This document shows, in pieces, positions 1,201 to 52,968 of a stretch of 64,000 bases of DNA; within the stretch, counting starts at the first letter, position 1; the number at the start of each line of letters is the position of its first letter. Below the pieces are notes generated by a model. It was given only the letters and a program-made list of their open reading frames with translations. It did not search any database and was not told the DNA's origin. The DNA lies in NCBI GenBank assembly GCA_030693205.1, contig JAUYBG010000011.1:56793-120792 (forward strand), read 5' to 3'. The DNA comes from a bacterium (GTDB lineage: Bacteria; Patescibacteriota; Minisyncoccia; JAHIHE01). The position numbers and the translations under genes were made by a program.

Positions 1201-1938
1201 TTATTTTATTAAAGCTTGAGTTTGTTTGTACTGATACAATAAATTGGTTTCGGCCGCTTTTTTATTTTCTGCTTTTAAAACCACTGTCCTCGTAATTTCG
1301 CTTATTTTTTTAAATCTATTGGTTGCCGAGATCTTAATTATATTAGAACCCGGGGTCAGACTGATCTCTTCCAAGATTTTTCCGTCTTTTAGTCCTATCG
1401 CCTCTCCATTAATATAAACAACGGAATCAGGATCGCCAACCGAGCCTTTGACCAATACAGGCGTAAAATCCACAACGAGCTCGTCGGTGGGAAAATCTAT
1501 CAAAAGCTCCGGTCCTTTGAAAATCGCGCTGACCTGATAGCCGAAAAAAACCACAAAAGAAACCAAAATAATGCTTACGGCTAAAGCGGTAATGGTGCGG
1601 GGAGTGATGATAAAAGTCGGGGCATAGTTTAAATTAATGGAAGAATGATTATTTTTATCAATATTCCGCCTAATGCACTCTTCTTTTTTATAAAGCCTGA
1701 GAAAGCCCTTTACATCAACGCCGTAAAAATCGGCTATTTTTTTTAAAAAATCTTTCACATAAATTTCCGCCGGCATCTTATCAAGCCTTCCATCTTCCAA
1801 ATAAACCAAATATTTCTTGGTAATCTTGGTTTTATCGGCAAGATTATCCAAGTCTATTTTTTGGGCAGTTCTAATTTCTATTAATTTTTCGGAAAGAGTA
1901 TCAGACCCTTTCACTTTTTTTGTTGTAAACCAAGACAC
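1201..1938 (-). CDS. RodZ-like cytoskeleton protein (N-terminal XRE-type HTH, single TM, C-terminal DUF4115-like domain)
   Basis: N-terminal HTH region (LSEKLIEIRTAQKIDLDNLADKTKITKKYLVYLE), a central hydrophobic helix and a beta-rich C-terminus. The stop lies 10 nt upstream of the recA start. Confidence 0.65.
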   Translation of the reverse strand: MSWFTTKKVKGSDTLSEKLIEIRTAQKIDLDNLADKTKITKKYLVYLEDGRLDKMPAEIYVKDFLKKIADFYGVDVKGFLRLYKKEECIRRNIDKNNHSSINLNYAPTFIITPRTITALAVSIILVSFVVFFGYQVSAIFKGPELLIDFPTDELVVDFTPVLVKGSVGDPDSVVYINGEAIGLKDGKILEEISLTPGSNIIKISATNRFKKISEITRTVVLKAENKKAAETNLLYQYKQTQALIK

Positions 1939-1944
1939 GGTTAT

Positions 1945-2060
1945 TTAATTTTCAAGCACCAATTTTCAATTTTCAAAAAAACTTAAACTGTCGTTTGAAA
2001 ATTTAAAAATTGAGATTTGATTGAAAATTGAGATTTGTAAATTGAAAATTTTAAAACCAA
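1945..2060. repeat. AT-rich array of GAAAATTGA-type 8-9-mers in opposite orientations (AATTTTCAA x2-3, then TTGAAAATTGAGATTTG x2, TTGAAAATT), forming a long imperfect dyad
   Basis: Lies between the ftsK stop and the rodZ-like start. The 13-mer GATTGAAAATTGA is shared with the array at 22300-22355. Confidence 0.6.
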
Positions 2061-2076
2061 AACTTACTATTTATTT

Positions 2077-4386
2077 CTACCTTTTCTCCATATCCACTTC
2101 TCTATCGTTTCTGAATTCCGTATTCAAACCATCGCTCGCCGCGCTTTCCGCGACCAATATCGTCCGAGGCTTTGCGCCATCAGAAGGCCCTATGATCCCC
2201 TGCTCTTCCAGAAGATCAAGAAGCCTCGCCGCTCTGGCATATCCCACGCGAAAACGCCTTTGCAAAAGAGACGCTGAAGCTTTTTTTGACCTGATCACCA
2301 TTTCTTTGGCCTGCTCATAAAGCTCATCCTCTCCGGCATCATTATTGCTCAAAGAAAAATCAACACTTGAAGCCGGAGCCTTGGCAATGACGCTTTCATC
2401 GAGCATTTGCGCGCCTTCTTTGTAATTCTCTTTGAGCCATTTTACCACTTTTTTAACCTCGTTCTCGGAAACAAAACAGCCTTGCAGACGCTTAGGCTTG
2501 GCCGTACCTGTCGCCAAATAAAGCATATCCCCCCGGCCTAAAAGTTTTTCCGCGCCGCTATGATCCAAAATCGTCCTGGAATCGATCAAGCTCGCTACCC
2601 GAAAAGCGATGCGAGCCGTAATGTTGGCTTTAATCAAGCCAGTAATGACATTAACTGATGGTCTTTGGGTTGAAATAACTAAATGAATTCCCACGGCTCT
2701 CGACATTTGAGCCAAACGCACGACCGCCGCTTCCACTTCGCGGGGAAAAGTCGCCATCAGATCCGCCAATTCATCAATGATCACTACGATATAAGGCAAA
2801 GGTTCTTTATCCTCAGATTTGGAAGCGATCATTTTTTTATTATAGGAATCGATGTCGCGGCTGCCAACTTCAGCAAGCACAATATACCGCCTCTCCATTT
2901 CCGAGACCACCCATTTCAAAACCCCCACCGCTTTTTCATTCTCCACGATCACCGGCGTCAGGAGATGAGGAATACTATTATACAAAGTCAATTCCACTCT
3001 TTTCGGATCAATCATTATAAGCTTCAGGGCATCAGGAGAATTATTATAGATCAAACTCATTATCAAATTATTAACAAAGATTGTTTTTCCGCTTCCGGTA
3101 GAACCGGCGATCAATAAATGCGGCAAGCCGCCAAGATCAACCCAGTGCGGATTTCCGGAAACATCCAAACCCATCGCCACTTTAAGCGAGGCAAAATAAT
3201 CATTTTTATAAAAATTGGAAAACGTTTCCAAAAGATTCCTAAGCCGGACGATGGCGGCGGACACATTGGGAATTTCTATTCCCACCAGGGATTTACCCGG
3301 AATCGGAGCTTCGATCCTAATGGAACTCGCGGCCAGGCTTAACGCCAGATCGTTTTGCAAAGCGGTGATCTTACTAAGCTTCACTCCCACTGACGGCTTA
3401 AAAGTGTATTGGCTTACAGTCGGCCCGATAAACACTTTTCCCATTTCTACTTCAATGCCAAAGTTTGATAAAGTTTTTTCGATGATCGAAGCATTGCCGT
3501 CAATATCGCCGCTATCAGCGCTGGTAAAATCGCTTTCCAAAAGATCCAATGGGAATTTGCTCCACTGAACCATTATTCTAGCTTTTTTCTTAGCCATTTT
3601 TTCCGAATAGGCAAAACTTTCCGCGCCAATATTCTTTTCCTGCTCATTCGCTTCCCCATTTTCTTTATCTTCAAGCGATTTTATTTTAAAAGAAGGCGCC
3701 AAACCATTTTTTTTGGCGTTTTCTTTTTCAAGCGCGGAAATATTATCTCTATAATTTTCTTCCTCTACTTTCGTTCTCTTGTTTTTCTTAGTTTGAGAAA
3801 TGAAACTGTAATAGCTATAAAAAGCTTTAATATTATAAACGATCCTGCTTAAAAAAGATTCAAGGGAAATATTAAAAATAAAAAGCGTTAAAATAATAAT
3901 CGCCATTATTAATATGACGCTGGCTACCGCCGGACCGGTAAAAGAAGTTAAAATAATGGAAAAAATCAAACCAAGATAACCGCCGCCGCCATAATTTACG
4001 GCAACGGATCGGAAATCATGCGGGAAAAACAGCAGGTTTACCAAAGCTAAAAAACTCAAAAGCACTACGGTAAAAGCTATAAGCATAACCGGAGAATAAT
4101 TAAAACGCCGCATCTGGCTATTATTATCGGCGGTTTTGGCAATAAGAGAAAGTCCGCCAAGAAACAAAAATACGGGCGCCAGGATAAATAAATGCCCGAA
4201 AAGCAGCCTTATCAACGAATGAATTCTTGCGCTGAACGGATCGTTAACCCCTATCAATCCCATAATACTGATCACGCCCAAAGCAAAGAAAATAATCGCT
4301 AAAATGTTGTATTTAAGCCCTTTTGAAGCATAATTTCGCTTGGAATAATTCTGGCTATTGTTGTTTTTCCTTTTATTTCTCGCCAT
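2077..4386 (-). CDS. ftsK: DNA translocase FtsK/SpoIIIE
   Basis: Four or more N-terminal TM helices, Walker A GSTGSGKT, and a C-terminal gamma winged-helix region (LYEQAKEMVIRSKKASASLLQRRFRVGYARAARLLD). Confidence 0.95.
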   Translation of the reverse strand: MARNKRKNNNSQNYSKRNYASKGLKYNILAIIFFALGVISIMGLIGVNDPFSARIHSLIRLLFGHLFILAPVFLFLGGLSLIAKTADNNSQMRRFNYSPVMLIAFTVVLLSFLALVNLLFFPHDFRSVAVNYGGGGYLGLIFSIILTSFTGPAVASVILIMAIIILTLFIFNISLESFLSRIVYNIKAFYSYYSFISQTKKNKRTKVEEENYRDNISALEKENAKKNGLAPSFKIKSLEDKENGEANEQEKNIGAESFAYSEKMAKKKARIMVQWSKFPLDLLESDFTSADSGDIDGNASIIEKTLSNFGIEVEMGKVFIGPTVSQYTFKPSVGVKLSKITALQNDLALSLAASSIRIEAPIPGKSLVGIEIPNVSAAIVRLRNLLETFSNFYKNDYFASLKVAMGLDVSGNPHWVDLGGLPHLLIAGSTGSGKTIFVNNLIMSLIYNNSPDALKLIMIDPKRVELTLYNSIPHLLTPVIVENEKAVGVLKWVVSEMERRYIVLAEVGSRDIDSYNKKMIASKSEDKEPLPYIVVIIDELADLMATFPREVEAAVVRLAQMSRAVGIHLVISTQRPSVNVITGLIKANITARIAFRVASLIDSRTILDHSGAEKLLGRGDMLYLATGTAKPKRLQGCFVSENEVKKVVKWLKENYKEGAQMLDESVIAKAPASSVDFSLSNNDAGEDELYEQAKEMVIRSKKASASLLQRRFRVGYARAARLLDLLEEQGIIGPSDGAKPRTILVAESAASDGLNTEFRNDREVDMEKR

Positions 4387-4442
4387 AGATAGCTTTTTAA
4401 AAAACTATAAACTACCAATTATCGCCTGCTAATTGTCTTTCT

Positions 4443-4470
4443 ATTATACTACTTTTAAAGAAAAAATCAA
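4443..4470 (-). promoter_or_regulatory. sigma70-like promoter for ftsK (TTGATT-N16-TATAAT on minus strand)
   Basis: Reverse complement shows TTGATTttttctttaaaagtagTATAAT about 55 nt upstream of the ftsK ATG. Confidence 0.5.
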
Positions 4471-4481
4471 AGAAATTGGAT

Positions 4482-4510
4482 AAAAAAAGCGAATGAATAA
4501 ATCCACTCGC
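4482..4510 (-). terminator. rho-independent terminator after the radical-SAM gene, immediately followed by the ftsK promoter
   Basis: Minus-strand reading GCGAGTG-gatttatt-CATTCGC-TTTTTTT. Confidence 0.6.
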
Positions 4511-4525
4511 CTAAACGATTTTATT

Positions 4526-5593
4526 TTACAACAAAGCTTTTGGAGCAAGCAGATGAGTTACGCTCCAGACACATCCCTCGCGCTCGCAGCATTTTTTTAC
4601 TTCGGCATCGCTTTGATAGATAAAAGGCAATCTTTTGCGAATATTTGAATCCCTAAGATCAGATGTCACAAGCCTAGGAATATCCGAACCTTTTATATCG
4701 CTGCATGCTCTCAGTCGAAATGATGTTTTGCCATCTCGCAAAGATTTACCGACTTCCGAACTCACTCGCAAATATGGCAGGCCTAAACCGCCGCAATTTG
4801 CCGAATACGGTTTCGCCGAATCCTTGCAGCTTTCGATAACCATTTTCAAATAGTCTTCGGATGGAATAATTTGCTTTGGATATTCCCTTTTAAGTTTGCG
4901 AATTTCCATTATCGATCTTTCTATGGTCTTCCTGTCGTTTTTTACAGCAGCAAGTCCGACTACTGGAGAACGAAAAGTGAACTCCAAACCCGAATCATAT
5001 TTTTCCCGCTTATAAATAAGCGGGCACAAACTGAAAGATCCTCCCGTCTTTGCGACTTTAAGAGCAATTTCGGCAAGATTCGCGCCGTTTATTTTATTTA
5101 CCGCGCAATTCGCTCTTACCCAGCAATGTTCGCTAAATTCCTCAAGCGCTTTCCAGCCGGCAATGCTTTTTTTTACCATTCCCGTATCTATTCCGGCACT
5201 TAGCAATTCATCGCATTGTTCGAGCGTATAATTTATACTCACTGCCAAACCGCCTTTTTCTTGGGAAAGTTCCGGTTTGATCCTTTGCAGAGCATCGCGC
5301 GATATCGCATTAGTAAGAATGGCAAATCTTTTTATTTCTTTTTGCCGATTTAAATACTCAAGCGCCGCCGGAAGATCCCTATACAGCAAAGGTTCTCCGC
5401 CAATGAATTCCAAATTTTGGACGCCGGCGCATATCAGATCGTCTATGCAGCTAATAACAAATTCTATTTTAGGATGTTGGTAGCCTGCCGTGATTTTATT
5501 TCTAACCTGGCACCCTTCGCATTCCAAATTGCAATCGGTTATCAATTCCCATTGGCAAAATTTAAACTTGGCTTGAATATTATTTTTTTCCAT
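4526..5593 (-). CDS. radical SAM protein with C-terminal Cys-rich SPASM/twitch-like region
   Basis: N-terminal CNLECEGC (Cx3Cx2C) radical-SAM cluster motif. Additional Cys clusters near the C-terminus (CWVRANC, CGGLG, KKCCEREGC). GAGGTG ribosome-binding site 5 nt before the ATG; the stop is tightly coupled to the upstream upp-like gene. Confidence 0.8.
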   Translation of the reverse strand: MEKNNIQAKFKFCQWELITDCNLECEGCQVRNKITAGYQHPKIEFVISCIDDLICAGVQNLEFIGGEPLLYRDLPAALEYLNRQKEIKRFAILTNAISRDALQRIKPELSQEKGGLAVSINYTLEQCDELLSAGIDTGMVKKSIAGWKALEEFSEHCWVRANCAVNKINGANLAEIALKVAKTGGSFSLCPLIYKREKYDSGLEFTFRSPVVGLAAVKNDRKTIERSIMEIRKLKREYPKQIIPSEDYLKMVIESCKDSAKPYSANCGGLGLPYLRVSSEVGKSLRDGKTSFRLRACSDIKGSDIPRLVTSDLRDSNIRKRLPFIYQSDAEVKKCCEREGCVWSVTHLLAPKALL

Positions 5594-16343: not shown

Positions 16344-17441
16344 TTATTTTATAAATTTGAAAGTCGAAAGAATTTGGTTAACAGTTTCTTCCTTCTGTTT
16401 CAAATAATCAATTCGAAAAATAATGTCACTTTTTTTAAAAAATTGAGTTACTCTATCTATTGGTGACACTGTTGTATCTTCAAGAACATAAGTCTGCGTA
16501 AAATATTCCAACATATCAACCCCTTTAAATTGTTTTTTTACTAAATTCGGCGTAGTGTTATGGCTATAATAACCTTGAATATCACCTTGTGAAACAATAA
16601 ATTGTTCTAACGTCTTTTCCTCGTCTAATACAATACTGTAGGCGGATAATAAACCATAAACACCCAGATCATCAGGTTTTGTCCAATTTAAGTGTAGCTC
16701 ATTGGCAGTTTCAGACTCTATTACAAAAATCAGATTTGTTGGATATTTTACTTCAAATCCATATTTCTCGTTTTTGTAAGTTTTTAAGTTTACTATTTCG
16801 TCTTTTTGAATAAATCTAAAGGTAGAAAGAATTTGTTTTATTACCCCATCACTTTTTTCATCATAAGAAGTAGAAATTGTATAAGCTGCTCCATTTTTCA
16901 AAAAATAATACAAATCTCCGACTGGCGCTTGTCCCTTTCCAGGCAACCAACTAAACCCTACAGCTTCTTTTCCATCAATAGAAGTTTTAAGAGTAAGCTT
17001 CTCTGTAACTCCTCTTTTTGCTAAAAATGTTTTTATATCTTTATCAACTATTTCATTTTCTATATTTATATCTATGGATAACCAATAATCTCGATCGCCA
17101 GAATAACTAAGATTGAATTTTGCCAAAACTAAGTCGCTTCCATCGTTTTCATTTTTCAAAGTCCATCCAGATGGATATTGAAATCCAAAACTATATTTAT
17201 CGCTTCTGTAATTTTGCCACCCCTCAATATTTTCACTAATATCTGGCGTAATTGCAGGTGTCGGGGTTGTTAAAATTTCTGGCGTAATCGACGCTACCGG
17301 TTCGCTATCTACAGCCGATTTATTATTCGCCAAATACCCCGCTACCCCAAGCACTATGCCGAAAGAAACTAAAAAAATCACGAGTAAAATCAATTTCGTC
17401 GCCGCTAAATTCAATAATCTGGGTTTTTGCTCCGGTATCAT
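16344..17441 (-). CDS. signal-anchored secreted protein with two internally repeated ~150-aa domains
   Basis: N-terminus MIPEQKPRLLNLAATKLILLVIFLVSF is paralogous to the N-terminus of 18963-19706. The domain ends ILSTFRFIQK and ILSTFKFIK are repeated. Confidence 0.6.
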   Translation of the reverse strand: MIPEQKPRLLNLAATKLILLVIFLVSFGIVLGVAGYLANNKSAVDSEPVASITPEILTTPTPAITPDISENIEGWQNYRSDKYSFGFQYPSGWTLKNENDGSDLVLAKFNLSYSGDRDYWLSIDINIENEIVDKDIKTFLAKRGVTEKLTLKTSIDGKEAVGFSWLPGKGQAPVGDLYYFLKNGAAYTISTSYDEKSDGVIKQILSTFRFIQKDEIVNLKTYKNEKYGFEVKYPTNLIFVIESETANELHLNWTKPDDLGVYGLLSAYSIVLDEEKTLEQFIVSQGDIQGYYSHNTTPNLVKKQFKGVDMLEYFTQTYVLEDTTVSPIDRVTQFFKKSDIIFRIDYLKQKEETVNQILSTFKFIK

Positions 17442-17470
17442 AAAATTTATTTAATAATTATAATTAAAAC

Positions 17471-18727
17471 TTATTTAAAATCCACAAATGGCAAAAGAAC
17501 AGCGGGAATAAAATATACCTCATTTTCTTTTTTTAATAAATCTTTTGTGGTAATCAATTTTCTCCCCACATTATCGTACCGCTCAGTAAAATTCTCCATT
17601 ATTACAGGCACTTTGACTTTATTCCTATATTTTACCTCGCAAAGCATTAATTTATTATTTTTATCCTCAATCACAAAATCAATTTCCGCGCCGCCGGAAG
17701 TGCGATAAAAATGAATGTATTCTTTATTATATTGAACAAGCAAAGTATTATAGACAAAATTTTCAATCACCTCGCCTTGCCCATCTAATCTCGTTTCAAA
17801 AGATCGCAAAAGATAATTGCGAATACCGGCATCTAAAACATAAACTTTTGGCATTTTAGAAATCTCCGAACGAATATTTTTAAAATACGGCGTTACTAAA
17901 TCTATAATATATGTGCCGGCCAAAATCTCCAGATACTTTTTTAATGTATTTATCGACAGATTTGCCGTATTCGAAAGCTCCTGGCTATTTACCAATTGGC
18001 CGATTTGTCCGGCTAAAATTTTTATCAGATTATTAAAACCAGTTACATTTTCAACATTCAGTTGATTGATAATATCCTTATCGATATAGGTTTTAATTAT
18101 TGATTTCAAAACTGTCTCTTTTTCTTCCACGCCTTGAGTAGTCAAAACCTCGGGATAGCCGCCGTAAGATAAATATTCACCAATACTCAGTTCCAGTTTA
18201 GGCTTAAAAGTTTCAAAAAACATTTCGAGCTCTTTTAAGTCAGCCAAACCATGTCGCTTAGTGTTTGTGCCTTCGCGAAAATCAAAATATTCTTTGAAAT
18301 TAATCCGATCAACATTGAAATGAATCGCCCTTCCTGTTAAATATTCCGAATTTTTATTTATTTCCAAAGCGCTTGATCCGCTGACAATCAGTTGAATTTT
18401 ATTTTTATGCTTATCAAAAATATTCTTGAGCAATAATCCAGCTTCTTCTATCGCTTGAAATTCATCAATCATCAAATAAATAAACTCATCGGGAAAATTA
18501 AAATATTGCTCCAGATACAACTCCAAACTAGCCGAAGTTTTCAGTATTGGATTATTGTCAATTTCATCCGCCAATAAATAAGCAACCCTCTTGCCGGATT
18601 TTTCCAAATCTTTTTTGATCTCTTTGAGTAAATAAGTTTTACCGACCTGTCGAGCGCCTTTTATAATTAAAATTTTCTCTTTGCCCAGCCAAGGTTTTAT
18701 TTTTTGCAATATTTCTCTTTGTATCAT
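17471..18727 (-). CDS. AAA+ ATPase (AAA_14 N-terminus plus DUF4143 C-terminus family)
   Basis: Walker A GARQVGKTYLL, Walker B LMIDEFQ, and the typical ~400-aa architecture of this widespread accessory ATPase. Confidence 0.85.
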   Translation of the reverse strand: MIQREILQKIKPWLGKEKILIIKGARQVGKTYLLKEIKKDLEKSGKRVAYLLADEIDNNPILKTSASLELYLEQYFNFPDEFIYLMIDEFQAIEEAGLLLKNIFDKHKNKIQLIVSGSSALEINKNSEYLTGRAIHFNVDRINFKEYFDFREGTNTKRHGLADLKELEMFFETFKPKLELSIGEYLSYGGYPEVLTTQGVEEKETVLKSIIKTYIDKDIINQLNVENVTGFNNLIKILAGQIGQLVNSQELSNTANLSINTLKKYLEILAGTYIIDLVTPYFKNIRSEISKMPKVYVLDAGIRNYLLRSFETRLDGQGEVIENFVYNTLLVQYNKEYIHFYRTSGGAEIDFVIEDKNNKLMLCEVKYRNKVKVPVIMENFTERYDNVGRKLITTKDLLKKENEVYFIPAVLLPFVDFK

Positions 18728-33192: not shown

Positions 33193-34434
33193 TTATTCCT
33201 TAAGACTGGTATACAAACATTGTCCATGTTCATGGGCTTTATCGCAAATATATTTTCCCAAATCAACATTATTACAATACAAATTACTATCTTTAGTATA
33301 GACAACATTATCTTCAATAAGAGTTGCGAAAAATACGGTTGCCGAAGCCCCCAAGTTATTCCCATTAAAAATTAAACTATAGCTACCACCTTCTTCGCCT
33401 TTATAAAGAATATTTTTACCGTCAATTCTAGACCCCTCCCCTTTTCCTATGTAAATACCATCAAAATATATATCATTACCATTTACCCAAGCTATGTGGC
33501 CATTTTTCATTTGAGCATTTCCACCCTCACCCAGATCTTTTTCATTTAAAAAAACATATTGACCTCCATCAACGCCTGTTACTATTTTTTCAAACAAAAC
33601 ATTTTCGCCTTCAACATTACGTATCAAACCACTAATCTTTTTAATCTCCTTACCGTTATACCAAATACTATTATTATTTCGTTGTGAAAAAAACACGCCG
33701 CCGTCATACATATGAAGAGACCCTGAACCCCAAATTTCTCCCAAATCTTTTCCATTATAAACTACTTTTGAATTTACGATATACGCAATATCGTTTCCTT
33801 TGACTTGTGGAATCTCACCTTCTCCTAAATCTTTGCCATCATAAATTATATGTCCCCCTCTCACGAAAGCTAAATGTCCATTATCTAATTTAGGACCTTC
33901 ACCAACCCCAATATTTTCGCCATTATAAATTATATATGGCTGCCAAGACTTATTTTCATCATATCCATATCTGATAAAAGCAATATTATTTCCATCAATT
34001 ACCACACTACCACCTTGCCTGTAATTTTTTCCATCATAGATTATATTTTTATTTTTATCCCAATATAACGGCTTATTCCCAGATAGATTATATACTAGTC
34101 CTTCTCCCAAGTCTTTATTATTAAAAATAACATGTGTTTTACCCTGTACAGACCTTTCGTATAAAACATTTAAAGGACATTCATTTTTTATCTCTTTGTT
34201 TAATTCCGATGCACTTTTTATTAAAGATAACGGTGAAGCTATTGTCGGCTCAGGCGTTAATGTTACAATCGGCTCTTCCGTCGGTTTTACAGCAACTGGC
34301 GAAGATTTTTCAACAGAAGATAAAAAAGCTGTTACGGCTAATGCCGCAACAATGGTAAACAGAATAACAGAGATTAAAATTAAAATTGACTTTGGTGATG
34401 ATAATTTATTTTCAGCCATATTATTTTTAAACAA
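33193..34434 (-). CDS. signal-anchored protein with ~10 tandem ~28-aa repeats (..YDGKDLGEG....G..IA[YF][IV]..), beta-propeller-like
   Basis: The repeat periodicity is visible in the translation. N-terminus MFKNNMAENKLSSPKSILILIS is paralogous to 34552-35304. Confidence 0.65.
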   Translation of the reverse strand: MFKNNMAENKLSSPKSILILISVILFTIVAALAVTAFLSSVEKSSPVAVKPTEEPIVTLTPEPTIASPLSLIKSASELNKEIKNECPLNVLYERSVQGKTHVIFNNKDLGEGLVYNLSGNKPLYWDKNKNIIYDGKNYRQGGSVVIDGNNIAFIRYGYDENKSWQPYIIYNGENIGVGEGPKLDNGHLAFVRGGHIIYDGKDLGEGEIPQVKGNDIAYIVNSKVVYNGKDLGEIWGSGSLHMYDGGVFFSQRNNNSIWYNGKEIKKISGLIRNVEGENVLFEKIVTGVDGGQYVFLNEKDLGEGGNAQMKNGHIAWVNGNDIYFDGIYIGKGEGSRIDGKNILYKGEEGGSYSLIFNGNNLGASATVFFATLIEDNVVYTKDSNLYCNNVDLGKYICDKAHEHGQCLYTSLKE

Positions 34435-34551
34435 TTATAAATTCGTAATAACACAGGAGGATTAAAATATCAATATTAAAAGCTGAAACTATTAATTAAC
34501 AGGCAACTCCATAATTTTCAGAAGTTACGGAAACCTACATTCCTGCGCCTT

Positions 34552-35304
34552 CTACTTCAATAAAATATTTTTGTAAATATTAACTATATCCGTCACGTCT
34601 TTAGGTGTTTTTTCTACATACACTCCATTTGCAAACGACCAATAGCTTATTTGGGCTTTTATAATATCACCATTTTCTAGCAAATAGGCAAATTGGTATC
34701 TCAAACAAGACTCTCCGCCAGTGCTTGGACACATAAACGATACTGGAGTATGAACCATTTGCACTTGTTGATTATACTTTGTTCTTATCAATTTTGCGTT
34801 TATGGCTTTTTCATACCAGCTAAGAATTTCATTACTATCGATGTAACTGTTAATATCGCTTTCGTTTTCCTTGTCTTTCCAAATTGTTAATATGGTAAAA
34901 CAATTTGGCTTTAAAGTCGGATCATCGTTATCATTCTCTGGCTCGCATGGTTTGATTCCAATTACATTTTTAGGATTTTTATCACGAAGACTTTCAATAT
35001 GCTGTGTATCAAATTTAATATAATTCTTAGGTAATTCGGATAACAAATTATTTATAAATACATTATCCAGTTCATTTAAGATTAAATTTTCTGGTTTTGG
35101 CTCAATCGAACTTATTATTGGAGTTGGCGATGGAGTTGGTGTCGGCGTCACTGTCGGCTGCACAGCAATAGTCGGAGTATTTTTAATGGAAGATAAATAA
35201 CTAACCACACTCAATGACGCAATAAGAACAAATAAAATAATGACAAAAATTAAAATTGATTTTGGGGATGATTGTTTATTTTCAGCCATATTTTCTTTTA
35301 ACAA
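34552..35304 (-). CDS. signal-anchored secreted protein, paralog (N-terminus) of 33193-34434, with Pro/Thr linker
   Basis: MLKENMAENKQSSPKSILIFVIILFVLIAS plus a TPTPTPSPTP linker. The upstream non-coding DNA is also shared with its paralog. Confidence 0.6.
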   Translation of the reverse strand: MLKENMAENKQSSPKSILIFVIILFVLIASLSVVSYLSSIKNTPTIAVQPTVTPTPTPSPTPIISSIEPKPENLILNELDNVFINNLLSELPKNYIKFDTQHIESLRDKNPKNVIGIKPCEPENDNDDPTLKPNCFTILTIWKDKENESDINSYIDSNEILSWYEKAINAKLIRTKYNQQVQMVHTPVSFMCPSTGGESCLRYQFAYLLENGDIIKAQISYWSFANGVYVEKTPKDVTDIVNIYKNILLK

Positions 35305-47293: not shown

Positions 47294-48496
47294 ATGCCAA
47301 AAATTATCATTGACGACAACAAGATCAAAGAGCTTTTAACTCGCGGGGTGGAAGAAATTTTTATCCGTGAAAGCCTGGAAAAAAAACTGAGAAACGGAAA
47401 AGAACTCAGGATCAAGCACGGCATTGACCCAACCGGAGAAAAAATACATCTTGGCAGAGCTTCCCTTCTCTGGAAACTCCGACAATTCCAGGAATTGGGA
47501 CATAAGATCGTGCTGATAATCGGAGACTTTACCGCTCAAATCGGCGATCCTTCGGACAAGCTGGCAAAGCGCCCGTTCTTAAGCGAAGAACAAATAAAAA
47601 AGAATATGGCCAATTACAAAACACAAGTCGGCAAGATTTTAGATATGGAAAAAGTAGAATTGCGCTATAATAGCGAATGGCTGGCAAAACTGACCTTCCA
47701 GGAGATCGGACAGCTGGCGGAAATTTTTACCATCCGGCAAATGATGGCCCGCCGGAATTTCAAAGAGAGAGATGAGAAAGGCGAAGAAGTAAGCTTAAGA
47801 GAGTTTTTATACCCATTAATGCAAGGATATGATTCCGTCGCGATCAAGGCGGATGTCGAGATCGGCGGTTTTGATCAATTGTTCAATTTGAAAGCCGGGC
47901 GCGAAATACAAAAATTTTACGGCCAAAACCAGCAAGATATTATGACAACCCAAATGCTGGAAGGAACTGATAACCGCAAAATGAGCACCAGCTGGGAAAA
48001 CGTCATAAATATTTCCGATAATCCGAATGAACAATTTGGAAAAATTATGTCGATGAAGGACGAGCTGATCCTGAAATATTTTCTTCTTTGCACGCAAATT
48101 TCACGAAAAGAAATATTATTGATAGAAAAAGGGATCGTGAGCGAAAAACTTAATCCTCGCGACACCAAAGTCCGCCTGGCCAAAGAAATCGTCACAATGT
48201 ATCATGGAGCCGCCGAAGCGGCCAAAGCGGAAAAAGAATTCAATAAGATCTTCCGCGACAAAGGAGTGCCAAGCGAAATGCCGGAAATCAAGATCAGCGA
48301 AAAATCCCTGGCAATTCTGGATCTGCTGGTAAAAATAAAACTCGCTTCTTCAAAAAGCGAGGCCAAAAGATTGGTGGAAGGCAAAGCCGTGGAAATCGAT
48401 AGCAAAATTATTTCTGACTGGAAAACGGCAATTGAAATTAAAAGCGGAATGGTGATCAAAGCTGGAAAAAGAAAATTCGCGAAAATAATTTTATAA
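47294..48496 (+). CDS. tyrS: tyrosine--tRNA ligase
   Basis: GIDPTGEKIHLGRASLLWKLRQFQELGHKIVLIIGDFTAQIGDPSDK aligns to the TyrRS HIGH region; KMSTS; C-terminal S4-like domain. Confidence 0.9.
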   Translation: MPKIIIDDNKIKELLTRGVEEIFIRESLEKKLRNGKELRIKHGIDPTGEKIHLGRASLLWKLRQFQELGHKIVLIIGDFTAQIGDPSDKLAKRPFLSEEQIKKNMANYKTQVGKILDMEKVELRYNSEWLAKLTFQEIGQLAEIFTIRQMMARRNFKERDEKGEEVSLREFLYPLMQGYDSVAIKADVEIGGFDQLFNLKAGREIQKFYGQNQQDIMTTQMLEGTDNRKMSTSWENVINISDNPNEQFGKIMSMKDELILKYFLLCTQISRKEILLIEKGIVSEKLNPRDTKVRLAKEIVTMYHGAAEAAKAEKEFNKIFRDKGVPSEMPEIKISEKSLAILDLLVKIKLASSKSEAKRLVEGKAVEIDSKIISDWKTAIEIKSGMVIKAGKRKFAKIIL

Positions 48497-48519
48497 TAAA
48501 CAAATTTTTATCATCATTT

Positions 48520-48550
48520 ATAAAACAGGGCTATTTGCCCTGTTTTAATT
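48520..48550. terminator. bidirectional terminator AAAACAGGGC-tattt-GCCCTGTTTT between convergent tyrS and the three-Cys/TcmP/lexA-like operon
   Basis: Perfect 10-bp palindrome with an A-run and a T-run. Confidence 0.8.
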
Positions 48551-48580
48551 TATATCCTACATAATACCTTTTAATATCAT

Positions 48581-49420
48581 TTAAACCGCATTATACCGTA
48601 ATAATAACTTTCTAAATTCACTAGTATTTTCTTTTTGTTTTAAGATGGAATTATCATCTATTGTACCCTGTTTAATATGGCATTTTATATTATTTTTTTC
48701 ACAAAATTTTATAACCTTATAGGCGGAATCATTATAAAAAGTTTTGTAATCTTTAAAATAGCCAACCATGCCATTATAATTCCATTTGCCAAAAACTATT
48801 TTATCAACAAATTTTATCTCTCTTAAAATTTCTTCTATATCTTGCTTGATAAAATTCGGCGTAGGATATGGCTCCATACTTACCCAAGTTTTTAATCCGC
48901 TGTCATGCAAAAATTTTAATGCCTTAATTCTCTCTTTAATTGGCGCGGCAAAAGGCTCATGCTTTTTTTTAAAATCTTCCAATAAAGATACTATTGTTGA
49001 ACCATATTCATTATCAGCTCCATAAATTTCTTTTTTTACCAATTGTTTCGGATAAATGCCTTTGCTTATGCAAACCGATTTTATATTATCTTTATTTAGT
49101 CTCTCAGTAACTTTTAAACTTAAATCACAAATTTCTTTTTGCTTATACATAAAAGGGTCCGTTGCAAAACATAAAAAAACATATTTTATGTCTTTTTTGT
49201 ATTTGGGAATTTCTTTGTCCAACAATTCCAAAGCATTACTAACAATTTTAGGCTTTAACCATTCTTTATAGCTGTTAATAATTCCACAGCGCTTTTTCAT
49301 CATCATCGCATAGCAAGGATATGTGCATCCATGAGAACATCCTTCGACATGATTTAAGCCATAGTCAGCATATTCCACACCGCTTTTGTATAAAAGTGTT
49401 TTGCGAGTGATTTTTTGCAT
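48581..49420 (-). CDS. Cx3Cx3C 'three-Cys-motif' protein (radical-SAM-like but non-canonical Fe-S motif), partner of TcmP-like gene
   Basis: The N-terminal EGCSHGCTYPC cluster (C-x3-C-x3-C) differs from radical-SAM Cx3Cx2C. Last gene of the lexA-like operon, with a 14-nt gap to the upstream gene. Very AT-rich codon usage. Confidence 0.7.
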   Translation of the reverse strand: MQKITRKTLLYKSGVEYADYGLNHVEGCSHGCTYPCYAMMMKKRCGIINSYKEWLKPKIVSNALELLDKEIPKYKKDIKYVFLCFATDPFMYKQKEICDLSLKVTERLNKDNIKSVCISKGIYPKQLVKKEIYGADNEYGSTIVSLLEDFKKKHEPFAAPIKERIKALKFLHDSGLKTWVSMEPYPTPNFIKQDIEEILREIKFVDKIVFGKWNYNGMVGYFKDYKTFYNDSAYKVIKFCEKNNIKCHIKQGTIDDNSILKQKENTSEFRKLLLRYNAV

Positions 49421-49434
49421 AAGATTATGCGTTA

Positions 49435-50583
49435 TTAAAAAATAATGATATCGCTATTGTCAATACCACCCTTTCGTGTTCTTCCATTACCATCTATTTT
49501 AATTATACCACTTTTTTCAAGTTCTTGTAATATCTTTTTAATCCCACTTTCCAAAAAATCACATTCATCAATAATTAAATTTAATAAACTGCCATAAGAA
49601 ATCTTTTTACGTTTAAGCTTACTTAATAAATTATCAATAAAAATTTCTCTTTTTTGATTTTTTTCCAAAGGTTTAAATAATGATTCTTGTTTAAAACCAT
49701 TTCCTTTATATTCTAAATCTCCAATATTAAACTTAGCAAAACTATCCTTAAACCTAATACAGCCTAATTGATGATTGCAAAGATGAAAAAGATAATAATA
49801 TGGCATATCTTTATCTGGAAAACTTAACCTGAACGGATATACAAATTTAGCCTTCCCATACTCCTTGCACTGCTTCCTAAACAAACTAACTAAATATCTT
49901 TCTTTTTCATCTGTCCTTTTACCTATATATTTTTTCCACTCTTTACAGCCAAATAAATTATCGTAATGAATTTGCAATTTAGGATTAGGATGACTAACCC
50001 ATCTTTGAATTGCATTATACATAAAATTTATAATTATTTCCGATTTAGGTTGTTTCAAAATTCTTGCAATTGTTTCCATTTTTACTTGAGAAAAACCAAA
50101 AGGATCAATCAAAAAAAATGTTGGAGCCAGTGATTTCACTTCTTTCTCAAAAGAATCTAAAATTCTATTGATTTCTTGATCAAAATTCCCTTCTATAAAT
50201 TGAATATTTTCAGTATTTACTTTGTTGTACCCTAGAACTTCCTTTAAGTTTTGTATATTTCCCTTATCTTCATCTATAATAACAATGCTGGCTTTACCGA
50301 TTTTACTATTTTCTATCAACTTCTTAATTTGCAAAGCAGCCACAACGGGAGAACCAAAATTATTAGATAAATATTTATTAGCTTCAATATCTTTTTTAGT
50401 GTGATATGCTCCTATTCCCCCAAAACCATCAATGTAATTTAGTCCCTTATTCCATTTACCCAATATTTGCAACCATTGAGGAAAATAATAACTAAGAACC
50501 CTATGCTTCATTTTTGTTTGTTCTTCGTACTCCCATGTTTTAAATGGAACATTATTCCATGATTTAGATTCTTGTTTCGACAT
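49435..50583 (-). CDS. TcmP-like (three-Cys-motif partner) protein with Rossmann methyltransferase-like N-domain
   Basis: Motifs YIDGFGGIGAY (motif-I-like), GSPVVAAL, acidic IIDED and FFLIDPFG (DPPY-like motif IV degenerated to DPFG). ATG at ~50583 lies 5 nt after the lexA-like stop (ORF-track TTG at 50601 would overlap). Confidence 0.7.
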   Translation of the reverse strand: MSKQESKSWNNVPFKTWEYEEQTKMKHRVLSYYFPQWLQILGKWNKGLNYIDGFGGIGAYHTKKDIEANKYLSNNFGSPVVAALQIKKLIENSKIGKASIVIIDEDKGNIQNLKEVLGYNKVNTENIQFIEGNFDQEINRILDSFEKEVKSLAPTFFLIDPFGFSQVKMETIARILKQPKSEIIINFMYNAIQRWVSHPNPKLQIHYDNLFGCKEWKKYIGKRTDEKERYLVSLFRKQCKEYGKAKFVYPFRLSFPDKDMPYYYLFHLCNHQLGCIRFKDSFAKFNIGDLEYKGNGFKQESLFKPLEKNQKREIFIDNLLSKLKRKKISYGSLLNLIIDECDFLESGIKKILQELEKSGIIKIDGNGRTRKGGIDNSDIIIF

Positions 50584-50588
50584 AAATA

Positions 50589-51230
50589 TTATTTTGACCA
50601 ACTTACTATTGGCTTCTTAATAACATATTTTACAACACCATTTATTAAAAACCTATCCTTCTCGTGAATAAATATAATCGGATGATTTTCCGTTGATTCC
50701 GAAAATAATGATATTGTTTTATTTTTTGAATCCATTGAAAACCTTTTTATATTTGCACAGTCATCGATTATAGACAAAACATAGTCTCCATTTTGAGGTT
50801 GTCCGCCATAATCCACAATAACATAATCACCATCTTCAATATTTTGTCCTTTTACATTGGCTTTATTCATCGAATTACCAGAAGCTTTAACGGCTAACAT
50901 TTTATCGCCAACTTTTATTATATTTTTTGATACTCTTATGTACCCCGAAATTTTTTCAACAGCAAAAATTGTTGCTTCTCCGCAATTTGCTTCTCCTAAA
51001 ACAGGAATGGTAATAAATAATCCTTTTTGAACTTCGCCTTCTTTCATCCTTTTTATACCCCCGGTCTTTTTATCAATTACTATAAACCCATTTTCTTCTA
51101 ACTTTTTTAAATGATAAGAAATTTTAAAAGGATGAGGCTCGCCCACCAACCTACCAATTTGTCTTAAACCGTCTCGTTTTAAGTTTATTTTATCCGCAAG
51201 ATTAAATAATTTTTGTTGTACATAATGCAT
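50589..51230 (-). CDS. LexA-like S24-family repressor (N-terminal wHTH, C-terminal autopeptidase domain)
   Basis: GNSM serine nucleophile, downstream KR lysine and a possible CG cleavage site. Promoter TTGACA-N17-TATACT whose -35 lies inside the palindrome TGTCAA-N13-TTGACA. Confidence 0.8.
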   Translation of the reverse strand: MHYVQQKLFNLADKINLKRDGLRQIGRLVGEPHPFKISYHLKKLEENGFIVIDKKTGGIKRMKEGEVQKGLFITIPVLGEANCGEATIFAVEKISGYIRVSKNIIKVGDKMLAVKASGNSMNKANVKGQNIEDGDYVIVDYGGQPQNGDYVLSIIDDCANIKRFSMDSKNKTISLFSESTENHPIIFIHEKDRFLINGVVKYVIKKPIVSWSK

Positions 51231-51257
51231 ATATATCGTTTATTTTATTCTACTTTT

Positions 51258-51310
51258 AGTATATTATTTCTCTTGCTACTTGTCAAGTGCGTAAACTCAT
51301 TGACATCTGT
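51258..51310 (-). promoter_or_regulatory. lexA-like operon promoter (TTGACA-N17-TATACT, minus strand) with -35 embedded in the palindrome TGTCAA-N13-TTGACA; a further inverted repeat CTAGTT-N7-AACTAG upstream at ~51349-51367
   Basis: Candidate autoregulatory operator. The motif is not a classical CTGT-N8-ACAG or CGAAC-N4-GTTCG SOS box. Confidence 0.55.
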
Positions 51311-51421
51311 TTATATATCTGCTAAAATGCGCTGTAGAAAGTGCACTCTTACTAGTTCCTTAGAAACTAGCCAATTAACCTAATCTGAATCTAAGGTGAA
51401 GATTAATAACCTATAATTGCT

Positions 51422-51643
51422 ATGTCAAAACAGGTCTTCATTAGCCCTTCTGACGAGGGCTGGAAAGTTAAAACTGTTGGGGCTGAAAGAGCAGCCGGAA
51501 TTTTTGAAACAAAAGCAGAAGCGGTTGAAAAAGGAATTGAAGTAGCCAAAAATAGCCAAGCGGAACTTCTAGCTCAAAACCTAGATGGAACTATTGGCTG
51601 GCGCAACTCCTACGGCAATGATCCTCGTCGCTCCCGGGGATAA
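51422..51643 (+). CDS. DUF2188-family small protein
   Basis: FISPSDEGWKVKTVGAERAAGIFETKAEAVEKG...GWRNSYGNDP matches the DUF2188 pattern. A terminator follows. Confidence 0.7.
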   Translation: MSKQVFISPSDEGWKVKTVGAERAAGIFETKAEAVEKGIEVAKNSQAELLAQNLDGTIGWRNSYGNDPRRSRG

Positions 51644-51657
51644 ATTGCAAAATAATA

Positions 51658-51695
51658 AAAGGATAAGATCGCGACTTGTCCTTTTTAATTTTTAT
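51658..51695. terminator. bidirectional terminator AGGATAAG-atcgcga-CTTGTCCT with flanking A/T runs between the DUF2188 and Smr genes
   Basis: 8-bp stem with one G-T pair, TTTTTAATTTTT downstream. Confidence 0.6.
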
Positions 51696-51780
51696 TATTT
51701 TCAACAATTTTAATCTCCTCCTCCATCAATCCATACAGTTCATAAACCTTTTGGTCAATAATTTTATCGGTCAAATTGCT

Positions 51781-52065
51781 TTAATCCAATTCAACATCGA
51801 TCGCGCCATCTCCTCCTTCGGATATTTTAGCGTTAGAATATTTTAAGCCCTTACTTTCAAGGGCTTTTTTAATATATTCGCTCAATACCCCTCGTCCGCT
51901 TTCCGAATGCAAGCCTTTGCCTGTGATTATTCTTACTTTTTTATATTTCTTGTTTTCAGCATCTTTTAAAAAATTGCCCAGAGCAATATTGGCTTCATTT
52001 TTGGTAAACCCGTGCAAGTCAATTTCCGCCTGTATTTTTTCTAAATATTTATTTTGATGCTTCAT
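51781..52065 (-). CDS. Smr-domain protein
   Basis: EIDLHGFT...VRIITGKGLHS is the Smr signature (DLHG ... ITGKG). Confidence 0.8.
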   Translation of the reverse strand: MKHQNKYLEKIQAEIDLHGFTKNEANIALGNFLKDAENKKYKKVRIITGKGLHSESGRGVLSEYIKKALESKGLKYSNAKISEGGDGAIDVELD

Positions 52066-52083
52066 TTGTTTAAATCTATTCTT

Positions 52084-52968
52084 TCATGTTGCTTCACTCG
52101 CCATCCATGCCGCGCCGAGAGCAATGGCATTTTGTCCAAGTTTTGAAACCACGATCGGAGTTTTAGCCAAAACCGGCAAAAAAACCTTCTTTTTTGCGTA
52201 TTCTTTGGCTTTGTTGATAATCAAATCCACTTCCGATAATCCTCCGCCAAGAACGATTATTTCCGGATTTAAACTTTGAATTATATTTGCCAAAAGTATG
52301 CCTAAAGTTTTCGAAACAGCATCAGTTGCCATTAAAGCGCTAAAATCTTTTTTTTGGGCCAAATCAACGATCTGAAAACTGTTTAAAATTTCTCCGGTAA
52401 TTTTTTTATAAACATTAACCAACCCTGTCCCCGAACTTATTAACTCGAAGTCTTCTTCCTTGCCAATCTCGCCTATTCGCATATGCCCAAATTCTCCGGC
52501 AAAATTGGCAGCCCCCCGATAGATCTTGCCATTGATTATTATCCCGCCTCCTATACCAGTGCCAAGGGTCAAAAATACCGCATTTTTCTTTCCCTGCGCC
52601 TTGCCAAAAGCACTTTCGGCAAAAAGAAAACATTTGACATCATTGTCAACGGCGACTTTAGTTTTTACTTTTTTTTCAAGATCTTTCTTAAATTCAATTT
52701 CGCCCGTTCTCAGCCGCGGCCCTTTTATCGCTATGCCTTTTTTATAATCCACCGGTCCGCAAAATCCGATTCCAATGCCGCCGATTTTATATTTTTCCGC
52801 TAAGTTCATAAAATTTTTCTCAACCATTTCCAAAATTTCCGCTTCTACCTTCGGGGTCGCAACCTTAATAGCTTCTAAAATCTTATACTTCGCTCCTTTA
52901 ATTTGCACCGTTAAAAAAATTGTCTTAGTCGCGCCGACATCAACGCCGAGATAAATATTTTTACTCAT
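52084..52968 (-). CDS. ROK-family sugar kinase (glucokinase-like)
   Basis: N-terminal GVDVGATKT, the central LGTGIGGGIIINGKIYRG and GEFGHM. Start overlaps the stop of the next gene by 4 nt. Confidence 0.85.
   Translation of the reverse strand: MSKNIYLGVDVGATKTIFLTVQIKGAKYKILEAIKVATPKVEAEILEMVEKNFMNLAEKYKIGGIGIGFCGPVDYKKGIAIKGPRLRTGEIEFKKDLEKKVKTKVAVDNDVKCFLFAESAFGKAQGKKNAVFLTLGTGIGGGIIINGKIYRGAANFAGEFGHMRIGEIGKEEDFELISSGTGLVNVYKKITGEILNSFQIVDLAQKKDFSALMATDAVSKTLGILLANIIQSLNPEIIVLGGGLSEVDLIINKAKEYAKKKVFLPVLAKTPIVVSKLGQNAIALGAAWMASEAT

Follow-up and report, generated by a model that had tools for sequence, protein, structure and literature searches.

The LexA, UmuD and CI proteins undergo self-cleavage that is stimulated by RecA bound to single-stranded DNA (ssDNA). 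Portable regulators of other kinds, CapH/CapP, CapW (BrxR) and CapK/CapS, lie upstream of defence operons and derepress them on DNA damage or ssDNA (10.1101/2022.04.27.489752; PMC11662680; PMC13373217), and the CapK/CapS paper makes no mention of S24 or LexA regulators (PMC13373217). TcmP (three-Cys-motif partner protein) is already known as a named family, and candidate systems containing it are already present in PADLOC. Only passing annotations of TcmP were found in the searchable literature, in agreement with an earlier, sequence-only reading of the DNA studied here, according to which no function has been assigned to the TcmP / three-Cys pair. No publication was found on TcmP function, DUF5131, the mechanism of PDC-M30/M41 or the GMT-wHTH (winged helix-turn-helix) domain, nor on COG1533 in defence or on S24 controllers of restriction-modification (R-M) systems. 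Here, an islet of three genes, encoding an S24-type repressor, a TcmP protein and a radical S-adenosylmethionine (SAM) protein (rSAM), is analysed within a 64,000-nucleotide stretch of a Patescibacteriota contig (JAUYBG010000011.1), hereafter called the window. Sequence comparisons indicate that the islet is composed of two separable modules, a cassette controller and a two-enzyme cargo, and by a modest balance of probability we regard it as a mobile cassette that regulates itself, is probably inducible by damage and acts in defence or in an R-M-like manner.

The three genes form one packed unit on the minus strand, in the order S24, TcmP and rSAM:

50589-51230, minus strand: S24 gene, 213 amino acids, first gene of the operon
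49435-50583, minus strand: TcmP gene, 382 amino acids counted from the ATG
48581-49420, minus strand: rSAM gene, 279 amino acids

The intergenic gaps are 5 nt between S24 and TcmP and 14 nt between TcmP and rSAM, so that the packing and the gaps counted by hand in the sequence-only reading agree with the coordinates of the open reading frames (ORFs). The 380 amino acids given there for TcmP have to be corrected to the length listed above, and an in-frame TTG upstream at 50601 would extend the protein to 388 amino acids if used. The GC content in a sliding window is 0.26-0.31 over 48500-51250 as opposed to 0.39-0.45 in the flanks. Of the 46 ORFs in the window, the islet genes have the three lowest GC contents (0.277-0.304; mean 0.403, standard deviation 0.039; z = -2.6 to -3.3), and their GC content at third codon positions (GC3) is 0.21-0.26 compared with 0.41 (z = -2.1 to -2.9). 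The AT-richness that had been noticed by eye relative to the neighbouring genes is thereby borne out. Judged by its composition, the islet is foreign and horizontally acquired, and both GC and GC3 support the acquisition that had been proposed on the strength of the AT-richness.

The product of the first gene matches Pfam Peptidase_S24 (PF00717) with 63.5 bits, above the cutoff of 23.3 bits. Its best NCBIfam model is lexA (TIGR00498) with 76.2 bits, which is below the equivalog cutoff of 110.95 bits, and its PHROG matches are repressor and UmuD-like families. In an alignment of 26 family members, N82-C83-G84, Ser120 of the GNSM motif and Lys162 of the IKR motif are all invariant, and the serine and lysine are those from which a LexA/S24-type repressor had been recognised in the sequence-only reading. 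The Cys83-Gly84 pair is what we take to be the kind of cleavage site found in UmuD. By family and by these residues, the S24 gene product is classified as a predicted self-cleaving repressor of the LexA/UmuD type.

Homologs of the S24 protein number 989, and the best 120 of these are 67-78% identical to it, about 212 amino acids long and found in Patescibacteria. Two paralogs of the family lie on a single 147-kb contig. Close homologs head a cassette of N6_N4_Mtase, MvaI/BcnI endonuclease, GmrSD and HEPN genes, and others head an MmeI-like methylase with a specificity subunit, HsdM with HsdS, or a series running from DUF2130 to Schlafen. A metagenome scan supplied 79 additional S24 loci. Among 35 dereplicated cassettes, the first cargo gene behind S24 encodes a DNA methylase in 19 (10 N6_Mtase, 5 C5 and 4 N6_N4) and TcmP in 3; the remaining first cargo comprises NgoPII and TdeIII endonucleases, KAP NTPase, ThsB-TIR, AAA_15/21 and DUF2130 proteins. 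TcmP is the first cargo in four independent S24-headed loci (L218, L219, L222 and L231, where L numbers denote comparison loci), and the rSAM gene comes next in three of them, L222 stopping at the contig edge. These comparisons indicate that the S24 family is a controller with swappable cargo that mostly heads R-M genes and is not dedicated to TcmP. The proposal that a LexA-like repressor is wired directly to the TcmP pair therefore holds for the position of the gene at the head of this operon; it does not extend to the family, which is shared with other cargo, or to most TcmP-rSAM pairs, which have no S24 gene.

Three regulatory elements are placed between the S24 gene and its divergent neighbour, a DUF2188 gene:

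51286-51258, minus strand: operon promoter, with the -35 TTGACA at 51286-51281, a 17-nt spacer and the -10 TATACT at 51263-51258
51300-51328, plus strand: divergent promoter toward the DUF2188 gene, with the -35 TTGACA, a 17-nt spacer and a TG-extended -10 TAAAAT
51290-51305, minus strand: probable S24 operator, TGTCAAtgagTTTACG, a one-mismatch copy of the family palindrome

The operon promoter, which had been read correctly as TTGACA-N17-TATACT, matches the consensus at 11 of 12 positions and is the top-scoring promoter-like site of the region. Promoter statistics were obtained from 70 distinct upstream regions of homologous S24 genes, 69 of which are anchored on the -35. The -35 TTGACA together with a -10 is found in 69 of the 70, with a 17-nt spacer in 65, and the -10 reads TATACT in 39 and TATAAT in 16. 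Of the 69 anchored regions, 59 contain GTCAA-N4-TTGAC as an exact palindrome, compared with a background of 4 occurrences per 1.74 Mb of unrelated locus DNA; the family palindrome is 16 bp long, (T/C)GTCAA-N4-TTGAC(G/A). It starts 29-30 nt before the -35 in 45 regions and 10 nt before it, overlapping the -35, in 15, one region having both. When upstream regions of S24 genes with different cargo are aligned, TTTTAGCA, TGTCAA, TTGACA and TATACT-like elements are invariant, and of 84 S24 upstream regions 43 contain TTTTAGCA, the operon-strand reading of the divergent -10. The copy in the window starts 19 nt upstream of the -35, as if 10 bp had been deleted from the common arrangement, and from the family comparison this palindrome at 51290-51305 is the probable binding site of the S24 repressor. 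The three placements, 29-30, 19 (in the window only) and 10 nt from the -35, differ in steps of about one helical turn, which suggests a helix-face constraint on the operator.

The sequence-only reading had placed the operator at a different palindrome, TGTCAA-N13-TTGACA. This palindrome does exist at the promoter, at 51305-51281, and its left hexamer is the -35 of the divergent promoter. It is statistically unremarkable within the window alone, and its meaning comes from the comparison with homologous loci, which relocates the operator. Since the spacing of 13 is found only in the window and the hexamers are 22-23 nt apart in the relatives, TGTCAA-N13-TTGACA is rejected as the conserved operator and is best seen as a by-product, the conserved site being the 16-bp GTCAA-N4-TTGAC. 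No second copy of the operator was found in the window. GTCAA-N3/4-TTGAC is present upstream of 0 of 123 TcmP genes that have no S24 gene, leaving the idea of a regulon controlled in trans unsupported. S24 genes ahead of TcmP in other phyla belong to other subfamilies, are 27-40% identical to that of the window and have no GTCAA-N4-TTGAC operator, suggesting that S24 genes have been recruited before TcmP repeatedly and independently. We know of no described SOS box of the form GTCAA-N4-TTGAC.

The surroundings of the S24 family show several further features. A small HNH-like gene (about 95 amino acids) lies divergently upstream of S24 in 41 of 74 loci, at a distance of 140-270 nt (for example, L218 5469-5744 and L161 3459-3746); it is absent from the window, where the DUF2188 gene is found instead. 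The conserved divergent promoter presumably serves this HNH-like gene, which could belong to the control or mobility module of the cassette. In L161, L167 and L168, a conserved GC-rich hairpin (CGGGG-TTCGACTGGn-CCCCG, then TTTT) separates the HNH gene from the control region and lies about 100-140 nt ahead of the S24 promoter. The window has no such hairpin, which could serve as a terminator or an insulator or else be a site of recombination. At L036, positions 1743-4907 encode a 1054-amino-acid Type III Res-type helicase with a C-terminal Peptidase_S24 domain, an unusual fusion whose gene follows that of an N6_N4 methylase and immediately precedes TcmP-rSAM.

The second gene product matches the TcmP model TIGR04474 with 174.3 bits against a curated cutoff of 53, over profile positions 1-260 of 263, which confirms the family assignment of the sequence-only reading. 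In a very confident AlphaFold model (pLDDT 93), the N-terminal domain folds as a class I SAM methyltransferase, for which the RlmJ/DUF519 type is closest. The C-terminal domain, residues 303-371, is a GMT-like wHTH. Structurally, TcmP is nearest to RlmJ, an m6A methyltransferase of rRNA, and to Trm1, a methyltransferase of tRNA. The motifs IDGFGGIG, GSP and FFLIDPFG, on which a methyltransferase-like N-terminal domain had been proposed, are present and agree with this fold. The family motifs are QTKMKH, DGFGGIGxY, GSP and IDPFG. By eye, the invariant residues are collinear with the motifs of RlmJ, QTKMKH corresponding to ADVLKH, YIDGFGGIGAY to YLDTHAGAGRY, FGSP to PGSP and LIDPFG to LIDPPY. 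In motif IV, D160-P161-F162 is invariant and G163 is nearly so, whereas RlmJ has DPPY instead. Searches of TcmP against the Protein Data Bank (PDB), with the single sequence and, by hmmsearch, with a profile, gave chance matches and no significant hit. An exhaustive profile search places 8710 representatives at 50% identity in the TcmP superfamily.

The third gene product matches Pfam Radical_SAM (PF04055) with 34.4 bits, above the gathering threshold of 29.5 bits. Its match to DUF5131 (PF07505), 20.3 bits, is below the gathering threshold of 28.9 bits, and all NCBIfam rSAM models score far below their cutoffs (for example, PA0069 with 42 of 360 bits and Rv2578c with 26 of 430 bits). The cluster motif C28-x3-C32-x3-C36, GCSHGCTYPCYA, is encoded at about 49313-49339. 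Among 2510 homologs, the best 120, from which identities and motif counts were taken, are 63-87% identical to the rSAM protein and come from Patescibacteria, Omnitrophota, Actinomycetota, Chloroflexota and other phyla. CxHGCx[YF]PC, with the spacing Cx3Cx3C, is found in 119 of these 120, the remaining one having the canonical Cx3Cx2C, so that the unusual spacing pointed out in the sequence-only reading is a trait of the family. The motif resembles GCxHxCxYCYA, which we take to be that of SplB-like enzymes, with one proline inserted. In a model with a pLDDT of 84.9, the best fold match in the PDB is spore photoproduct lyase (SPL; E 4.8e-5, TM 0.59), and the best Foldseek matches are nearly all radical SAM enzymes with a partial TIM-barrel fold, SPL being first. 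The third gene product is thus assigned, with a modelled fold, to the radical SAM superfamily as an SPL-like member. The spacing does differ from the radical SAM canon, as had been remarked, but the protein is still inside the superfamily by the Pfam match and the SPL-like fold; it is not the classical three-Cys partner of TcmP, given its subthreshold DUF5131 score and different Cys spacing. Searches against the PDB with the single sequence and with a profile gave chance matches only, so that membership in the SPL family is not found at the sequence level. The protein also belongs to PHROG 13321, a family with no function attached, and no database record holds an exact match to its sequence.

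TcmP and the rSAM protein are tightly linked. The TcmP gene immediately precedes the rSAM gene in the same orientation in 59 of 67 genome loci with enough flank, and likewise in 66 of 72 viral or prophage loci from IMG/VR, where the rSAM family occurs on 75 contigs. No gene besides TcmP is universally linked to the rSAM gene. Nine proteins from archaea and bacteria are natural fusions of an N-terminal TcmP with a C-terminal rSAM domain, and both (I/V)DPFG and CxHGCx[YF]PC are kept in them. These linkages and fusions indicate that the TcmP-rSAM pair is a conserved functional unit. When one genome per species is counted, at least 593 bacterial and archaeal species carry a member of the rSAM family, with identities of about 55-70%; they include DPANN and methanogenic Archaea at about 55-65%, and so wide a species range at such identity suggests horizontal spread under strong constraint. 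Cultured phages and plasmids are essentially devoid of the family; one unannotated faecal phage contig has a match of 52% identity and the others are below 30%. Distant TcmPs, at 25-30% identity, pair with true DUF5131 proteins, two of which have C-x6-C-x2-C, suggesting that TcmP partners two sister families of the SPL/DUF5131 branch. DUF5131 and SPL share one megacluster in RadicalSAM.org (PMC9477430). A comparison by hhalign of the rSAM profile with a DUF5131 partner gives a collinear, weak match (E 0.016).

The neighbourhood of the pair is of the mobile or defence type. In 51 species-dereplicated loci, the gene immediately upstream of TcmP is most frequently an S24 gene (6) or, jointly, an N-6 DNA methylase (6, of which 4 are of the Eco57I/MmeI type and 2 of Type ISP); it is a C5 methylase in 2 loci and ResIII in 2. 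R-M neighbours of the pair include Type IIG (L024, L030), Type ISP (L019) and a Type III Res with an endonuclease domain (L040), and Fic, PIN, Schlafen/AlbA_2, RhuM and Bro-N genes recur beside it. A prophage-like array consists of a divergent M78 (IrrE/ImmA-like) peptidase, HTH_26 (Cro/CI; 26 loci), TcmP and rSAM; the genes after rSAM encode an N6_N4 DNA methylase (in 17 loci) and a helicase of the ResIII/SNF2 type (in 11), and large serine recombinases are found near such arrays. The PADLOC models PDC-M30A and PDC-M41A match TcmP, PDC-M30A over nearly its full length with 97 bits; since only these 'A' models are hit, the full PDC-M30/M41 candidate system is not present.

As to the prophage-like arrays themselves (L086-L160; for example, L131, L141 and L149), they often carry tandem TcmPs of about 379 and 289 amino acids before rSAM, and a gene of 190 codons of unassigned family precedes the TcmPs beside the M78 peptidase. 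The N6_N4 methylase is about 700 amino acids long, the ResIII/SNF2 protein about 960 and the divergent M78 peptidase 645.

We infer the following mechanism, including the RecA dependence of cleavage, the induction by damage or phage, the DNA substrate, the chemistry and the role in defence. An S24 dimer would bind a GTCAA-N4-TTGAC-type site beside or over the -35 and thereby keep both its own operon and the divergent promoter low, in negative autoregulation. Self-cleavage by Ser120/Lys162 at Cys83-Gly84 would inactivate S24 and lift the repression. By analogy with LexA, UmuD and CI, this cleavage may be stimulated by RecA-ssDNA after DNA damage or phage attack, so that either event would raise the expression of the cargo. 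TcmP may then bind SAM and select a site on a nucleic acid, probably DNA, through its wHTH and a base-flipping pocket like that of amino-methyltransferases, and the SPL-like rSAM enzyme would carry out 5'-deoxyadenosyl-radical chemistry on the substrate of TcmP. The cargo would accordingly act as an obligate two-enzyme conflict system of the modification type, similar to R-M. The R-M-like reading is preferred because in S24 cassettes TcmP takes the slot of the DNA methylase and the rSAM slot is often that of the second R-M component.

Several observations weigh against this interpretation. Taken by itself, the operator copy of the window, which has one mismatch and a spacing seen in no other region, is not significant. 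About 88% of the pairs have no S24 gene immediately upstream, and for the closest relatives of this TcmP (about 55% identity) the pair forms an insertion of just two genes, surrounded by housekeeping genes. R-M genes could be neighbours of the pair because both reside in variable islands and not because they share a function. PDC-M30 and PDC-M41 are unvalidated candidates whose other components are unmatched here, and at E = 10 no PADLOC model matches the rSAM or S24 protein. Binding of a [4Fe-4S] cluster by Cx3Cx3C is putative. As for TcmP, hhalign of its profile against the single E. coli RlmJ sequence gives a probability of 0.9%, so the link to RlmJ rests on fold and motifs and not on family membership. 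DPFG in place of DPPY in motif IV means that methyl transfer by TcmP is not assured, and since RlmJ acts on RNA, the substrate of TcmP could be RNA. No experiment or publication was found that ties the TcmP or rSAM family to a phenotype.

A broader interpretation, which we put forward tentatively, is that the TcmP-rSAM pairs and their DUF5131 sister pairs form a hitherto unrecognised and very widespread class of nucleic-acid conflict systems, with S24-module versions serving in Patescibacteria as plug-and-play cassettes alongside ordinary R-M systems. The base-flipping, methyltransferase-like subunit and the rSAM enzyme would together write a non-canonical mark on DNA, or attack DNA that is not marked, as an analogue of R-M based on radical chemistry, and the shared module of S24 repressor, operator and HNH gene would tie expression to DNA damage or phage attack.

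Rather unlikely, in our estimate, is a system for abortive infection in which the rSAM enzyme makes a toxic or chain-terminating nucleotide, as prokaryotic viperins do, or damages nucleic acid, TcmP being a sensor or nucleotide-binding partner and repressor cleavage during infection unleashing expression. In its favour, the pair has neighbours like those of defence islands, TcmP is matched by candidate models of PADLOC, tight and cleavable repression suits a toxic effector, and S24 cargo elsewhere includes ThsB-TIR, KAP NTPase and AAA_15/21; an analogy is offered by the abortive systems under the control of CapH/CapP, CapW and CapK/CapS (10.1101/2022.04.27.489752; PMC11662680; PMC13373217). 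However, the rSAM fold is nearest to SPL, which acts on DNA, and not to viperin, the wHTH and amino-methyltransferase-type motifs of TcmP suggest a polymer as substrate, and TcmP fills the usual DNA-methylase slot of S24 cassettes.

The SPL-like fold raises another explanation, SOS-controlled DNA repair, in which the rSAM enzyme would reverse a particular DNA lesion as SPL does, TcmP would detect and flip the damaged base and the repressor would make the system inducible by damage. SPL is the top fold match, IMG labels homologs as 'DNA repair photolyase', the TcmP fold is typical of base-flipping enzymes and comes with a wHTH, and a LexA-type repressor with intact cleavage residues lies upstream, such repressors having been recruited repeatedly before the pair. 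We nevertheless consider repair unlikely: the patchy, horizontal and prophage-borne spread and the adjoining R-M genes fit conflict systems better, the S24 family elsewhere heads R-M and defence cargo and not repair genes, most pairs have no S24 gene at all, and the protein is not a member of the SPL family at the sequence level.

It is also conceivable that the pair modifies rRNA or tRNA with an RlmJ-like and a Cfr/RlmN-style enzyme, possibly as a mobile pair for resistance to a toxin or antibiotic that targets the ribosome. Radical SAM enzymes that methylate rRNA, Cfr for example, are encoded by mobile resistance genes, TcmP is structurally nearest to RlmJ and Trm1, and the pair sits among housekeeping genes in several genomes. 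The wHTH, the R-M adjacency and the prophage arrays point to DNA instead, the rSAM fold is like that of SPL and not of RlmN/Cfr, and the S24 controller family otherwise heads DNA methylases, which makes RNA modification quite unlikely. Finally, a housekeeping LexA with unrelated passenger genes, whose palindrome is merely two back-to-back -35 hexamers, would account for the left hexamer being the -35 of the divergent promoter, for lexA as the top NCBIfam model and for the IMG label 'SOS-response transcriptional repressor LexA' of homologs, but is hardly credible in view of the foreign low GC that the S24 gene shares with the cargo, the two paralogs on one 147-kb contig, the score under the LexA equivalog cutoff, the many cargo cassettes headed by the family with a conserved control region and the frequency of the 16-bp palindrome (59 of 69 regions against 4 per 1.74 Mb).

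Outside the operon, the borders of the islet are marked by the following features:

48521-48547, no strand assigned: bidirectional, intrinsic-terminator-like hairpin, AAAACAGGGC-aaata-GCCCTGTTTT, the 3' border of the cassette
51422-51643, plus strand: DUF2188 gene, 73 amino acids, Pfam DUF2188 63.1 bits, PHROG 3220, downstream of the divergent promoter

The hairpin has a perfect stem of 10-11 bp (11 pairs with 5 G-C and a loop of 5 in a terminator scan), with an A-run on one flank and a T-run on the other, and thus corresponds to the perfect 10-bp bidirectional terminator that the sequence-only reading had drawn between the unit and the convergent tyrS. The convergent neighbour past it encodes a tRNA synthetase of class I and of the Tyr/Trp type, whose C-terminal domain is TyrRS-like. 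At the other border, the DUF2188 gene was considered as a member of the acquired islet and rejected because its GC content is 0.464. A DUF2188 gene is also divergent from S24 in L227 (39-260), where the cargo is Eco57I-like, and one lies directly upstream of TcmP in two Omnitrophota loci (L031 457-687 and L034 3655-3885); in L082, a DUF1508 (YegP-like) gene follows the TcmP-rSAM pair. Right after the stop of an Smr-domain gene, 31 codons in frame at 51688-51780 (minus strand) encode SNLTDKIIDQKVYELYGLMEEEIKIVENNKN, which is typical of the C-terminal tails of Type IIG or Type I-like R-M methylases. This stretch has 79% DNA identity to the LKIAKTDKKIDAEVYKLYGLTKEEIKIVDGSFNK-coding stretch at L218 5292-5393, which occupies the corresponding place ahead of the S24-TcmP-rSAM genes of the independent locus L218/L219. 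The stretch at 51688-51780 is probably, by this similarity, the remnant of a decayed R-M gene, which hints that other cassettes have been housed at the site.

ARAGORN finds 0 tRNA or tmRNA genes in the whole 64-kb window, so that a tRNA/att signature is unsupported, and nothing in 48300-52100 reaches the Rfam gathering score. Other genes of low GC (0.32-0.33) in the window are located at 33193-35304 and 16344-18727, both on the minus strand. These stretches include two ORFs of 413 and 250 amino acids without a Pfam match and a PsbP_2-like lipoprotein beside an AAA_14/DUF4143 ATPase, and they may be further acquired islets. Several housekeeping stretches of the window are 65-78% identical to a contig of Candidatus Moranbacteria (L076), in keeping with an origin in Patescibacteria.

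As far as we can tell, three points are new: the Cx3Cx3C, SPL-like sister family as a partner of TcmP, together with its fusions; the quantified link of the pair to R-M genes; and the Patescibacteria control module of S24, operator and, in part of the loci, HNH gene, whose R-M and defence cargo can be exchanged. It is a real possibility that the cargo stands for a class of systems for nucleic-acid modification that is itself new. TcmP, long a curated name without a function, gains a testable anatomy consisting of a fold, a wHTH, a partner, fusions and a neighbourhood. Should the pair use radical chemistry to write or erase a mark on DNA, epigenetic defence would gain a new enzymology, from which a tool might also come, and the S24 module may explain how ultra-small bacteria of the Candidate Phyla Radiation (CPR) shuffle and regulate their R-M systems.

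Compared with described systems, the cargo is closest to the pair of TcmP and DUF5131 (phage Gp37-Gp68; TIGR04474; PF07505). In both, TcmP is directly upstream of a small Cys-motif enzyme and the contexts are mobile or prophage-like, but the partner here has C-x3-C-x3-C, passes Radical_SAM, fails DUF5131 and belongs to a very conserved family of its own that has no dedicated NCBIfam model. Likeness to the PADLOC candidates PDC-M30/PDC-M41 lies in the hits of their 'A' models to TcmP of the window. TcmP differs from RlmJ, the 23S rRNA m6A2030 methyltransferase, in having no membership at the sequence level, DPFG instead of DPPY and an additional wHTH, and the rSAM protein differs from SPL in its Cys spacing as well as in lacking family membership by sequence.

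The controller shares with LexA, UmuD and phage CI the S24 domain, the Ser-Lys dyad and, as in UmuD, the Cys-Gly site, and it too heads its operon with a palindromic site at its own promoter. Unlike LexA, it scores below the equivalog cutoff and belongs to a multi-copy, cassette-borne and compositionally foreign family whose predicted targets are R-M and defence cargo instead of an SOS regulon. R-M controller (C) proteins are likewise encoded by a small autoregulated repressor gene at the head of a travelling cassette, with the operator at its own promoter, and the same logic suits safe establishment after horizontal transfer. C proteins, however, are XRE-type HTH proteins of about 80 amino acids without a protease domain, whereas S24 adds a potential damage-inducible switch, and in contrast to R-M systems under C proteins, the cargo here includes no recognisable DNA methylase or restriction endonuclease family; some prophage TcmP arrays do carry small Cro/CI HTH genes. 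The M78 peptidase and HTH genes beside prophage TcmP arrays also resemble CapP/CapH. The Cap regulators belong to different protein families with different mechanisms of signal transduction, and the S24 family of the window is confined to Patescibacteria. The S24 module would extend the damage-responsive regulation of immune operons, as described for CapH/CapP, CapW and CapK/CapS, to a classical LexA-type switch.

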